From Malacoraja senta (Eukaryota), in contig CM075990.1 in assembly GCA_038087875.1 (NCBI GenBank), forward strand, positions 3,288,001-3,352,000: a stretch of 64,000 nt of DNA, in the 5' to 3' direction. Under the pieces are notes generated by a model. It had not been told where the DNA came from, searched no databases, and saw only the letters and a program-made list of their open reading frames with translations. The translations under genes were made by a program, and so were the position numbers. This document shows, one piece after another, positions 6,309 through 57,260 of the stretch. How positions within the stretch are numbered: the first letter of the stretch is position 1; each line of letters opens with the position of its first letter.

Positions 6309-6872
6309 AGGGCCCGTCCAACTTAGGCGATCTTTTCGGCGACTGACGGCGAATGACATAATCGGAGCAGGTCGCTGAGAAAACGGCCACTGGACCCCCC
6401 CCTAGGACAAAGTCTACGACAATGTTTACTACACGCTACAACAACCTATCACATAGTCGACGTCAAGCTACGGCAAGCTACCGACAACCGGCGACCCATT
6501 AAGACGTCCATGTACGTCCACACAGGCGACAACCTACGACAACCAAAATCAACCTACGTCAACCCGCGACAAGCTGCAACAAGCTATGACACTGTCGGCG
6601 GCAACTGAAGACAATTCAGTCGCCGGTACCTGTCGCCGGTCGACGTAGTTTGACGTAGGTAGTCGCCAATGGAATTCACCGAAGTCAGCACCCGGCGACA
6701 ACCTACGTCATCTGGCAACAACGTACGACAGCGCCTTCGTCAGGAGAAGGAAAGCTACGACAAGCCCATGGTCGCCGACCGTCGCCGAAAAGTTTTGAAC
6801 ATTTCAAAATCCAGCGGCGACCAGAAAAACGCTACCACTCTTTGGGCGACTGAGGAGACGACTCACGACCAG
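6309..6872. mobile_element. Harbinger-type MITE (family 2, CGAC-rich), right end lost
   Basis: Left end AGGGCCCGTCCAACTTAGGCGA after TAA; body homologous to 43160-43580 and 61778-62323. Confidence 0.8.
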
Positions 6873-6907
6873 TATCAGATAAGCATCTCAGATACAGTTC
6901 GCATGTA

Positions 6908-7272
6908 ACATAGAAAGTAGGTGCAGGTGTAGGCCATTCGGCCCTTCGAGCCAGCACCACCATTCAATATGATCATGGTTGATCATCCAGAATCAGTACC
7001 CCGTTCCTGCCTTCTCCCCATATCCCTTGATTCCGTTAGCCCTAAGAGCTACATCTAACTCTCTCTTGAATACATCCAGTGAATTGGCCTCCACTGCCTT
7101 CTGTGGCAGAAAATTCCACAGATTCACAACTCTCTGGGTGAAAAGGTTTTTCCTCATCTCAGTCCCAAATGGCCTACCCCTTATTCTTAAACTGTGACCC
7201 CTGGTTCTGGACTCCCCCAACATGGCGAACATTTTTCCTGCATCTAGTGCTGTCCAATCCCTTAAGAATTTT
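6908..7272 (-). mobile_element. CR1 (HER1-like) LINE 3' fragment
   Basis: ORF 6993-7232 (ESRTRGHSLRIRG..FTQRVVNLWN..FKRELD) is a CR1 ORF2 C-terminus; CR1 3' UTR follows. Confidence 0.9.
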
Positions 7273-25838: not shown

Positions 25839-26947
25839 AGGGCCAGTCCCACTTGGGCGACCTAATCCGCGAGTCCAGAAGAGTGTCTTCGACCTTCAGG
25901 TTCGAGGGCACTCGCATGGAAAGCCTCGAAATGGATCGACCATCCGCGTTGAAACCGCGAGCTGGATCGACCGTCCGCATTGAAACCGCGAGCTGGATCG
26001 ACCGACCGCACACACACACACAAACACATCGCAAAGCCGGGGGCCAGGGAAAGCGAGGGAGCGCTGCCTGAAATTCACACCCGCGTTGAAGAAGAAGGTA
26101 AAATGGCTGCACAGTAACGGGAGGTCCTTTAGAGAGTGTGGGGGTGGGGGGTGGTGGGGGGGAGGGGAGAGAAGGGGAGAGAAGGGGAGAGAAGGGGAGA
26201 GAAGGGGAGAGAAGGGGGGGAGAAGGGGGGGAGAAGGGGGGGAGAAGGGGGGGAGATGGGGAGAGAAGGGGAGAGAAGTGGAGAGAAGGGGAGAGAAGGG
26301 GAGAGAAGGGGAAAGAAGGGGGGAGAAGGGGAGAGAAGGGGAGAGAAGTGGAGAGAAGGGGAGAGAAGGGGAGAGAAGGGGAGGAGAAGGGGAGAGAAGT
26401 GGAGAGAAGGGGAGAGAAGGGGGGGAGAAGGGGGGGAGAAGGGGGGGAGAAGGGGGGAGAAGGGGGGGAGATGGGGAGAGAAGGGGAGAGAAGGGGAGAG
26501 AAGGGGAGGAGAAGGGGGGAGAAGGGGGGGGAAGGGGGGGGGGAGACACGTTTAAGAAGTATAATAATGTTTTGCGGGCATTTTACCTACCGGTAAGTCT
26601 TCCTTGGTCCTGAAAACTCCAATGAGCCAATCAAACTGTCCGGTCAGCGAAGGAGATTGCCTACGGCTGCCCTCGACTGCCTGTAAATCAATAGTGACCC
26701 CACTCCACTGCATTACGAGTTAAAAAGAACCATGCCGACCAAATTTTACTCGGGGAAAATTTTTCAACATGCTGAAAAAAAAATTTCCGCGACCTAGCTG
26801 AGGCCGCGAGTATTCGGGAACTTTCCTCGAGCATAAAGGAGAGTTCCAGCGACCTCATACGACCACGTGTCGACCATGCTGCGAGTTTGAAGGTTGAAGA
26901 CACTCTTCTAAACTCGCAGATTAGGTCGCCCAAGTGGGACAGCCCCT
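25839..26947. mobile_element. Harbinger-type MITE (family 3) with expanded minisatellite
   Basis: Colinear with 19272-20049; TAA/TTA flanks. Confidence 0.85.
26140..26545 (+). repeat. (GGAGAGAAGG)n-type polypurine minisatellite
   Basis: About 400 bp of ~10-nt degenerate G/A units. Confidence 0.95.
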
Positions 26948-49785: not shown

Positions 49786-51561
49786 ATAAACATTGTCCAA
49801 TCCATCTATTTCTAAATGATTATTTGTCTCAAAGAGTTAAAGAAAAAGAATTCGACTTTAGACTTTACTTTAAACTTTAGAGATACAGAGTGGAAACAGG
49901 CCCTTCGGCCCACTGTGCAATCACCTTGTAGCACCATCCTATACACCAGGGACAATTTACAGAAGCCAATTAACCTACAAACCTGTATGTCTTTGGAGTG
50001 CGGGAGGAAACCGGAGCACCCGGAGAAAACCTATTTGGAGAACGTACAAACTCCGTATAGACAGCACCCGAGTTCAGGATCGAACCCCGGGGGTCTCTGG
50101 CGCTGTGAGGCAGCAACTCTACCACCTGGTGATTCTGAGCAATGAAGCTCGGGAACGATGAAGGTTCATGCAGGGGCCTTGGGAGCAGCGATACTTTATT
50201 GAGGGCCGCGAGCCATAATCCATTCCCAGCGAGAGATCTGGGCGCAGTCTGTGACAGTTCGCGAGAAGGAGCAAGGTTATCATTCACACGCGTTTCAGCG
50301 CAGCAATAAATATGGTCACAACTTTTCCTTATTTATAAAGTGTGGTCCATGCTTAATTAGCATCAGCGCCCAGCCTCACTGAATGAATTGACTAGGAAGA
50401 GCGGCACTCATGCAGTAAGGTTGTTTGAAGGTTGTATTTAAAGTAACATTGGAACAATTTATTGGGAGGTTTACCCTTCATTTAGGCTCAGCTAAACTTG
50501 ACTGCAGACTGCTTGATGAGGCATTGTCAGGGGAGATTTATTCTACAACCATATTGGACTATACATCACTTGGAAGTGGTTTATGAGGCATGGATTCTAC
50601 AATACTCTTTGAAATAAGGGCAGGATAAATATCTGCTCATTGAATGAGACTTTGGTGGCCGGTGGAGTACTGGGTATTCACTGTGGCAGAGCGGAGCCCT
50701 GTGGCAGGGACTGACGGTGAGAACGGGGTCAGGCCACCTGACGGAAGGAAGGGTTAAATAGTCTGGGATTTGGGGAGCTCGCGTTACAGAGGTCGCCGGG
50801 GAGCTGTGTTCCAAACCCAGCCAGTCGGAAAATGCTGGCACTGCCACGAATCTCCATGCGGTTTCCATCCAACTTCGTGTGGGTTAGAGGCCGACCTCGA
50901 CGACTCTGGGTTGTGGAGAGGGCATGGTTAACGTCTGAGAGCACCCTTCCCATTCTAATTACTTGCCAAGGCATCCGATTTCACTTTGTGAAGAGAGGTT
51001 TGGAACAGGACAAACGCAGAACCTCTGTGCATTTACACGCTGAATGAGTTTATGGTCCCCAACAGTAGGAATCCTAGAGATGACTGGGTAGTCGCATCAT
51101 GGGTGTCGGGAGGAACTGCAGATGCTGGTTCAACACCAAAGAGAGACACAAAAAGCTGAAGTAACTCAGCGGGACAGGCAGCATCACTGGAGAGAAGGAA
51201 TGGGTGACGTTACCTTCCTCTCAACCCGAAATGTCACCCATTCCTTCTATCCAGAGATGCTGCTTGTCCCGCTGAGATACTCCAGCATTTTGTGTCTATC
51301 TTCGGATTGTCCCATCAGATTTAGTTTAGTTTACTGTCACGTGTACCAAGGTACAGTGAAACGGTTTTGTCGCGCGCTAACCAGCCAGCAGAAAGACAAC
51401 ACGATTACAATCGAGCCATTTACAGTGTACAGATACATGATAAGGGAATACCAACTGAGGAGTGTTTGATGGATCTGGGCCTGTAACGCTGGAGTTTGGA
51501 AGGATGAGCGGGGGGCGGGGTTGAGCGTAGATCTCATTGAAACCTATCAAATAATGAAAGG

Positions 51562-51806
51562 TGTGGCGGCCCCTGGTGGTGAGCCACGCGCACTGCAAAC
51601 CCTCGGCTCTGGAGGGGCGAGTCACGTGTCTTGGTGACGGAACGTGCAGGTCACGAGGCTCCCCTGGGGGTTATTTAAGGTCGGGAACGCCCGTGCCTAG
51701 GGGTGTAGTATGGAGGTGTAACGATAGTTAACATAAAAAATTTACCTGCTGGACAAACTTCGTGTCCCACCTCATTCTTGGCTGGACAGCTTCGAGTCCC
51801 TCCTCA
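51562..51806 (+). mobile_element. Gypsy-type LTR (245 bp)
   Basis: TG..CA ends with imperfect inverted termini, TATA-like TATTTAA 51672-51678, polyA-like CATAAA 51732-51737, tRNA-Trp PBS 1 nt downstream, AAGG TSD. Confidence 0.8.
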
Positions 51807-51807
51807 A

Positions 51808-51857
51808 TGGTGACCCCGACGTGATCCGAACATGCAGCCTTCTGATCTGGAGTCAGA
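51808..51857 (-). pseudogene. Retrocopy of mature tRNA-Trp(CCA) nt 27-76 (extended primer-binding site)
   Basis: Minus strand reads TCTGA CTCCAGA TCAGA AGGCT GCATG TTCGGAT CACGT CGGGGTC A CCA: anticodon arm (CCA), T-arm, acceptor 3' strand and CCA of vertebrate tRNA-Trp. Confidence 0.9.
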
Positions 51858-52492
51858 GGCCTCAAAGGCCTGGATAGAGTTGACGTGGAGTAGATGTTTC
51901 CAGTAGTGGGAGAGACTCGGACCAGAGAGCTCACCATGACAATAAAAGGGTGCAGTTTTAGAATATGAGGAGGGATTTCTTTGGCCAGAGGGTGGTGAAT
52001 CCGCAGAATCCATTGCTATAGATGGTGGTGGAGGCCAAGTCAGTGGGTATTTTAAATGCAGAGGGTGGACTAACAGTAGGATTGCAGCCTTACAGCGCTG
52101 GAGACATGGGTTCCATCCTGACTACTGCCGCTTGTCTGTTCGAAGTTTGTACATTCTCCCCGGGATAGCTGGTCAGCGCAGACTCGGTGGGCTGAAGGAC
52201 CTGTTTACGCGCTGTTTCTCTAAACTAAACTAAACAGAGGTGTTAGGTTCTCGATTAGTAAGGGCTTCAAAGGTTACAGTGAGAAGGCAGGAGAATGGGA
52301 TTGAGAGGGAAAGATAGATCAGCCATGATCGAATGACGGAGCAGTCTTGATGGGCCAAATGGCCTAATTCTGCTCCTGTGTCATGGTCTTACAGTCTCAT
52401 GGAATCATCCACAAGTGGACAGCGTGAGGAAAGGGACATTCTGGTCAGTGTGGGCAAGTTGGGCCGAAGGGCCTGTTCCACGCTGTATGACT

Positions 52493-56677: not shown

Positions 56678-57260
56678 ACTGCTGAGGCTTTATACGGCAC
56701 TGGTCAGACCACATTTGGAGTATTGTCAGCCATTTTGGACCCCTTATTTGAGGAAGGATGTGCTGCCGCTGGAGAGGGTCCAGAGGAGGTTTACACGAAT
56801 GATCCCAGGAACGATTGGTTTAACAAACGATGAGCGTTTGACGACGCTGGGCCACTACTCGCTGGAGTTCAGGAGGATGAGGGGGGAACCTCATTGAAAC
56901 TTACCAAATATTGAAAGGCCTGGATAGAGTGGATGTGGGGAGGATGTTTCCACTAGTGGAAGAGTCTAGGACCAGAGGGCACAGCCACAGAATTAAAGAA
57001 CGTACCTTTAGAAAAGAGGAGGAAATTCTTTCGTCAGAGGGTGGCGAATCTGTGGAATTCATTGCCACAGAAGGCTGCGGAGGCCGTCAATTAATATTTT
57101 AAAGGTGGAGATTGATAGATTCTTGATCTGGGGTTAAGGGGAGAAGGCAGGAGAATGGGGTTGAGAGGGAAAGATAGATCAGCCATGAGTGAATGGAGGA
57201 GTAGACTTGATGGGTCGAATGACATAATTCTGTTCCTATCACTTATGAACTTATGAACCT
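56678..57260 (+). mobile_element. CR1 LINE 3' fragment
   Basis: LLRLYTALVRPHLEYCQPFWTPYLRKDVLPLERVQRRFTRMIPG. Confidence 0.9.

Follow-up and report, generated by a model that had tools for sequence, protein, structure and literature searches.

A single LTR joined to an antisense tRNA-Trp copy in Malacoraja senta, and a recurrent class of probable over-extended plus-strand strong-stop products

The window analysed here is a 64,000-nt stretch of the Malacoraja senta assembly GCA_038087875.1 (contig CM075990.1, positions 3,288,001 to 3,352,000, forward strand). At 51558-51868 the order is AAGG, a single LTR, a spacer A, a 50-nt complement of tRNA-Trp (51808-51857), GGCCTCA (51858-51864) and AAGG again (Table 1). 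This anatomy had been proposed in the original prediction from the letters of the DNA, and all of its coordinates were reproduced, as was the match itself: against a genomic tRNA-Trp gene (L033) with CCA appended, the tail shows two mismatches in 50 nt, one at 51826 (position 58) and one at 51833 (a CpG). The host repeat, labelled CR1 in the original prediction, is presumably CR1-like. Its uninterrupted copy within the window was said to display the empty site and does hold a single AAGG, and the target-site duplication (TSD) is therefore real. A solo LTR was rejected because 58 nt separate the end of the LTR from the right TSD, and neither Rfam nor ARAGORN gave a match at the locus. Elsewhere in the window, a minisatellite with a 10-nt unit occupies 26134-26556.

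Table 1. Features of the tail-bearing LTR insertion and its comparator in the window
Feature	Position	Strand	Remark
Left target-site duplication, AAGG	51558..51561	+	Occurs a single time at the empty site, 56889-56950
Single 245-bp LTR (TG..CA) of a probable tRNA-Trp-primed Ty3/gypsy family	51562..51806	+	
Spacer A, 1 nt, between LTR and primer site	51807..51807	+	Paralogues have 1-2 nt spacers
18 nt complementary to tRNA-Trp 76-59, with the CCA that the genes lack	51808..51825	+	
C opposite tRNA A58, putative m1A58 misincorporation	51826..51826	+	Genes have A58; C in 13/43 independent tails
Tail from read-through, complementary to tRNA-Trp 57-27 except for a CpG-type change at 51833	51827..51857	+	
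Junction base opposite G26	51858..51858	+	Differs in another organism's contig; origin uncertain
GCCTCA, identical to the 6-nt LTR terminus of the family; provides the CA end	51859..51864	+	6/6 closest paralogues
Right target-site duplication, AAGG	51865..51868	+	
Comparator: uninterrupted host-repeat copy	56889..56950	+	Carries AAGG once

The insertion looks both real and old, since a public short-read contig, from a run that is possibly the source sample, covers 51771-51994 with no letter differences and one gap, and since the right junction is covered by contigs of two other organisms. One of these, from organism C, is ortholog-like (51740-51937, 23 differences, no gap); the other, from organism A, spans 51834-52001 with 7 differences. 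At the left junction, a contig of organism C extends 30 letters to one side, one short of the 31 required. The tRNA match had been thought to end right before G26, and 51858, opposite position 26, is indeed the first base off the match to tRNA-Trp; because organism C differs from the window at 51857-51858, carrying A at 51858, the end of the tail is certain within one base and falls at 27 or 28. The terminal match to the end of the LTR is present as described earlier, at 6 nt rather than 5. This terminal piece is only 6-7 nt in all and partly matches the target site too; longer and unambiguous returns to U5 are present in sibling events.

Among 351 candidates for the family of the window's LTR, 40 were scored, the 39 other than the window's being 74-89% identical. 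Long tRNA matches as a normal part of the family, the circumstance against which the original prediction had set its own reading, were not encountered: a long tail is found in none of the 29 other family LTRs examined, and in seven of these ordinary leader begins after a primer-binding site (PBS) with about 15 nt of match to tRNA-Trp. Since ordinary copies match for only that length, the full 18 nt at 51808-51825 are likely tRNA-templated. A further five of the 29 are solo LTRs with exact 4-bp duplications and several, preceded by a polypurine tract, are 3' LTRs, such that paralogues occur as 5' LTR with PBS, as 3' LTR and as solo LTR. The features of the window element (a TG..CA LTR with a short TSD, in a family that has a 5' PBS and a 3' LTR preceded by a polypurine tract) point to a derivative of a Ty3/gypsy LTR retrotransposon, with the reverse transcriptase (RT) placement taken from siblings and not from the window's own family. 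The RTs of two sibling tail-bearing elements, L072 and L211, are closest to Ty3 (E 3e-37 and 6e-42), against E 4e-5 and 4e-16 for gammaretroviral-type RT entries, and the gag of the window's own LTR family had no Pfam match. By primer type and TSD length, the Trp-primed elements may be CsRn1-like and those primed by Leu or Ser Mag-like. Identification of the insertion as a TRIM or as Helenus was rejected, as there is one LTR, the tail lies outside it, and a search of the genome found neither a second copy with the junction nor an amplified family.

The genomic tRNA-Trp genes speak against a templated change at position 58. ARAGORN identifies L033-L036 as tRNA-Trp(CCA) genes, none of which encodes the 3' CCA, and A58 is present in 5/5 other tRNA-Trp gene-like loci. 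A G58, which had been named beforehand as evidence against misincorporation, was sought among these five gene-like loci and not found, with the qualification that the assembly holds only 4-5 tRNA-Trp genes and variants may be missing. A genome-wide search for Trp tails, with a pattern that carried N at 58 and allowed up to one mismatch, returned 57 matches against 0 for a control pattern. Removal of 3 genes, 6 surplus units of an array, 3 duplicates (L050, L069, L103) and 2 ambiguous 23-nt cases (L095 and L104, which may be ordinary leader) left 43 independent tails on 21 LTR-end clusters, all of them from the pattern that leaves 58 free. Opposite 58 these read T in 28, C in 13, A in 1 and G in 1, and thus 15/43 are miscopied, compared with a background of 20 mismatches in 1,156 at non-CpG columns. 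The change from T to C occurs in 13/43 tails at 58 and in 0/288 at other T columns (Fisher p 5e-13), which lends statistical support to the predicted misincorporation at m1A58. An analogous denominator for Trp primer sites (838 matches, control 86) was unusable, about half of the 100 listed being a variant likely from another repeat.

The ends of the Trp tails are also non-uniform. Position 38 is reached by 14 tails, five of which end there (p 0.018 against positions 36-30); another five end at 27-29 and 0/43 go past 27. Most of the others end at 40-46, for which no single modification accounts. Position 57 reads T in 22/43 tails where the genes found have G57, while the CpG partner of this column is changed in 2 and T occurs at the same column in 5/85 Leu tails. 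This is unlike symmetric CpG decay, and the simplest guess is an A57 variant missing from the assembly. Two further observations concern unusual tails. At L080 (G000:C4264, about 6800-7150) seven tandem 52-nt units, each consisting of LTR end, PBS and tRNA-Trp tail, lie within one AGCC duplication, and position 58 is correct in 7/7 units. Short overruns of about 19-24 nt that rejoin at leader or internal sequence were seen at L027, L078, L095 and L104, three with C at 58.

The phenomenon extends to other primers. A generic tRNA pattern gave 95 matches (control 16), most being tRNA-derived SINE or chance and nine being Leu or Ser tails, and an exact 35-nt CCA-bearing Leu pattern gave 345 matches (control 0). 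Exact 18-nt Leu primer sites number 1,415, and the 345 (24%) that carry at least 35 nt of copied tRNA are a share of surviving sites and not an error rate, because intact elements likely lose the PBS through solo-LTR formation; one-LTR products cannot shrink to solo LTRs and would therefore be enriched among the primer sites that survive. Sequences were obtained for the first 90 of 100 listed among the 345, of which 85 are independent and fall on 32 LTR-end clusters. Opposite 58 they read T in 48, A in 22, C in 13 and G in 2, a miscopied fraction of 37/85 over a background of 3/295, and the spectrum of errors differs from that of the Trp tails (C13:A22 in Leu, C13:A1 in Trp, p 4e-4). Many of the tails that read 58 correctly (28/43 Trp, 48/85 Leu) may have come from unmodified primers. 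In the smaller Ser-GCT sample, C stands at 58 in 3/6 tails versus 0/8 genes. The insertion is a unique copy and at the same time a member of a recurrent class that many families have made independently from at least three primer types; of the two original alternatives, a one-off and an LTR-tRNA family, it is neither.

The Leu tails also record events deeper in the tRNA. Most end away from 37 and 26, in the variable arm; 11 reach 38 and only 3 of these continue beyond 37. Among 12 Leu-CAA read-throughs chosen for length (L220 was left out), position 37 is miscopied in 8/12, with A in six, G in one and T in one, the correct C standing in four. Though three Leu-CAA gene copies contain introns of 30-31 nt between 37 and 38, the Leu-CAA tails cross the anticodon in spliced form, and the template of these tails was therefore a mature RNA. 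At L142:1506-1592 a complete intronless tRNA-Leu(CAA) copy with CCA lies directly behind an LTR and reads 58, 37 and 26 correctly. By eye, this copy is followed by sequence resembling an integrase core, and ARAGORN calls it a tRNA-Leu gene. Several other observations were made on Leu and Ser tails. At a variable-loop C of Leu-CAA, the 31 tails passing beyond read A in 18, gene-like G in 9, T in 3 and C in 1, a mixture that could be due to m3C or to a variant gene that the assembly lacks. Three dispersed copies (L183, L185, L200) have a common Leu tail and junction and represent an amplified tail-bearing element, for which no second LTR was found within 1.5 kb. A single Ser-GCT tail, at L138, ends just before position 32, presumably an m3C site in Ser tRNAs. 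The Leu tail of L190 extends by a few bases that resemble the end of the Leu-CAA intron, possibly from an unspliced primer and possibly by chance.

Beyond the tail, the sequence may take one of several courses. A return to the last bases of the LTR followed by a TSD is present in 5/43 Trp events (the window's own, L037, L065, L068, L080) and in 1/85 Leu events (L194, 5 bp); the TSDs called automatically at L049 and L067 are artefacts, of a microsatellite and of flanking LTRs respectively, and were discarded. Many other tails run on into gag/pol, with RT, RNase H or integrase sequence after the tail in several, and others into host DNA, several of them passing there directly with no CA end or TSD; at L071 the host repeat resumes at a 3-nt microhomology. 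One element, L074, has two LTRs that are 92% alike within an ATCT duplication; between them lie the PBS, the tRNA tail and a short stretch of the 3' part that includes a polypurine tract, so that a single mis-transfer has here given a TRIM-like product. For 68 of 128 junctions the DNA downstream has a paralogue available for comparison, the donors being 68-97% identical. At 17 of these 68 testable junctions there is microhomology of at least 3 nt, compared with 5.1% expected under a two-sided null (p 4e-8), and 31 of the 68 have no microhomology. Two junctions are more complex: at L042 the tail to position 38 is followed by an inverted leader piece and then by U5 with an ordinary PBS and leader, as if several jumps had occurred in one molecule, and at L067 a tail-bearing LTR end lies within inverted LTR and internal sequence, resembling auto-integration.

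There is good reason to think that these observations share one origin. The template was a mature tRNA, because CCA is present and the intron is absent in the Leu class. The copies stand at a fixed position behind the LTR, their landing sites vary, and a subset has ends of the type made by integrase. The layout is that of over-extended plus-strand strong-stop DNA, which runs from the start of U3 through U5 and then, beginning with CCA, along the complement of the mature primer. Errors and ends cluster, as a positional pattern, at canonical modification sites (errors at 58 and, in Leu, at 37; ends before 37 or 26), which are the usual sites of m1A, m1G and m2,2G, and we infer modification to be the cause. 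The window holds an LTR with an antisense copy of mature tRNA-Trp that very probably arose when strong-stop DNA overran m1A58, mis-landed and was inserted by integrase. A Ty3/gypsy RT engaged in plus-strand strong-stop synthesis would pass position 58, either misreading m1A or working on an unmodified primer, and the extending cDNA would then stall or jump further along the tRNA. An over-long 3' end could not pair beyond the PBS and would re-prime at another site of the minus strand, in many cases where 2-9 nt of microhomology exist. Deleted elements would result if that site lay in gag, RT, RNase H, integrase or the 3' region, and the form LTR-tail-LTR end, as in the window, if it lay in U5. 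Insertion of the product by integrase is suggested by the TG..CA ends and the exact 4-bp duplication. The CA end that the original prediction had the product acquire is present; its source is best read as a jump back to the end of U5, one landing place among several.

An alternative that accepts the same read-through origin is that the element integrated with its tail, an internal part and a second LTR, and that a later deletion removed what lay between the tail and the end of the 3' LTR. Tail and LTR end both have GAGTC just before the window junction, a two-LTR mini-element with a tail and a TSD does exist (L074), and the insertion is old enough to be common to other organisms. This history is nonetheless unlikely: six events end about 6-25 nt from the LTR terminus with the TSD intact, which is a narrow target for random deletions, and the seven U5-PBS-tail units of L080 within one TSD fit a jump back to U5. 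Less likely again, and doubtful for the window, is direct capture of the strong-stop duplex, with integrase joining the left end and host repair patching the tRNA end with bases of target or LTR. The junction motif AGGCCT is also present in the target, and the siblings that pass from tail to host with neither CA end nor TSD, together with the resumption at L071, are as this process would leave them; for the tail-to-host subclass it may be correct. It leaves to chance the window's CA end and exact 4-bp TSD, however, and cannot account for tails that continue into gag or pol; the A of organism C at 51858, if ancestral, also points to a match with the LTR end and none with the target.

The remaining explanations dispense with read-through at each locus. 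The tails might be ordinary inherited internal sequence of one or a few families, the changes at 58 being family SNPs or tRNA gene variants. One Leu tail family does have three copies among the 90 fetched (L183, L185, L200), the small number of tRNA-Trp genes (4-5) allows for missing variants, and lentiviruses carry a short primer over-extension sequence (PMC13191261). Yet the LTR-end clusters that bear tails number 21 for Trp and 32 for Leu, ends and junctions differ among the tails, one cluster can hold more than one letter at 58, ordinary family copies lack tails, and the wrong letters at this position are of three kinds in two tRNA types, so that this reading is already largely refuted and very improbable. 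That a LINE reverse transcriptase placed tRNA retrocopies beside existing LTRs, in a genome rich in LINE- and SINE-like repeats, is refuted by the fixed position and orientation of the tails, those checked having their CCA 0-3 nt after an LTR-type end, being antisense with no poly(A), and matching each family's own primer.

With over-extension followed by mis-landing as the preferred account, a known error of reverse transcription is here preserved at genome scale, and in a form more general than first proposed. Gypsy-rich animal genomes may well, on balance, hold a fossil tRNA-seq library of germline m1A58, m1G37, m2,2G26 and possibly m3C in hundreds of datable insertions, as well as a route to new elements. 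If so, overrun would generate tRNA-bearing non-autonomous elements and intronless, CCA-encoding false tRNA genes, these Ty3/gypsy groups would transfer tRNA-templated plus strands as yeast Ty3 does not, and error spectra would differ between element groups. Past germline tRNA modification would become testable from DNA alone, including in species that have no RNA data. The tails provide in vivo data on how LTR RTs behave at modified bases and on where a failed second strand transfer lands, in contrast to reviews that hold long primer read-through to be non-integrating and Ty1/Ty3 primer sequence never to be inherited. They are also a trap for annotation, as one overrun product was called a tRNA-Leu gene by ARAGORN.

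Precedents exist for individual parts of this process. Faulty plus-strand transfer anchored at the PBS was reportedly described by Pulsinelli and Temin in 1991 as a source of deletions in retroviral vectors, and Colicelli and Goff are said to have reported in 1986 an MLV circle with a tRNA between the LTRs; these were reportedly single clones from the laboratory, unlike the natural germline class and modification footprints described here. The literature searched, which leaves out most subscription and pre-2000 papers and repeat-database entries, gave no description of such footprints in a class fixed in a genome. During plus-strand strong-stop synthesis in HIV-1, RT ordinarily halts at m1A58 of its primer, and minor over-extended products (P1-P5) reach 55/54, 37 or the tRNA's 5' end (Fukuda et al. 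2021, PMC8599865; review PMC13191261). According to these sources, products beyond 54 cannot be integrated (PMC8599865) and only those ending at 58-54 are active (PMC13191261). The HIV-1 overruns are known as intermediates in vitro and in cell culture, whereas those described here belong to Ty3/gypsy elements and number hundreds of fixed genomic copies, some with TSDs. In yeast Ty1 and Ty3, the first plus-strand product copied from the tRNA is a dead end and primer sequence is not inherited (PMC5371799, PMC7472051). As in yeast Ty3, the first plus-strand product includes a stretch that a Ty3/gypsy RT has copied from its primer tRNA; the difference is that here, at least in aberrant products, the tRNA-templated sequence is inherited.

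Helenus TRIMs are LTR elements with tRNA-derived sequence, and their animal copies make 4-bp TSDs (Kojima 2024, PMC10886601). Their tRNA-like part lies inside both LTRs, is proposed to be a Pol III promoter and is attributed to a SINE insertion (PMC10886601), whereas the tRNA part found here is the primer itself, placed beyond the LTR as an extension of the PBS. The footprints find their closest counterpart in tRNA-seq, in which RT errors and stops are described at m1A58, m1G37, m2,2G26 and m3C (PMC4787781, PMC8062790, PMC11417395), and in zebrafish tRAM-seq, where the errors sensitive to demethylase lie at positions 58, 37, 26 and 32 and at a C of the variable loop (PMC11417395). An m1A followed by A gives a low template-sense C signal (Hauenschild 2015, PMC4787781), and the tails of the window species are alike in this, with cDNA G at 58 in 1/15 Trp errors and 2/37 Leu errors. 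Unlike the laboratory libraries of tRNA-seq and mim-tRNAseq, however, the signature described here was written in vivo and is fixed in the genome.
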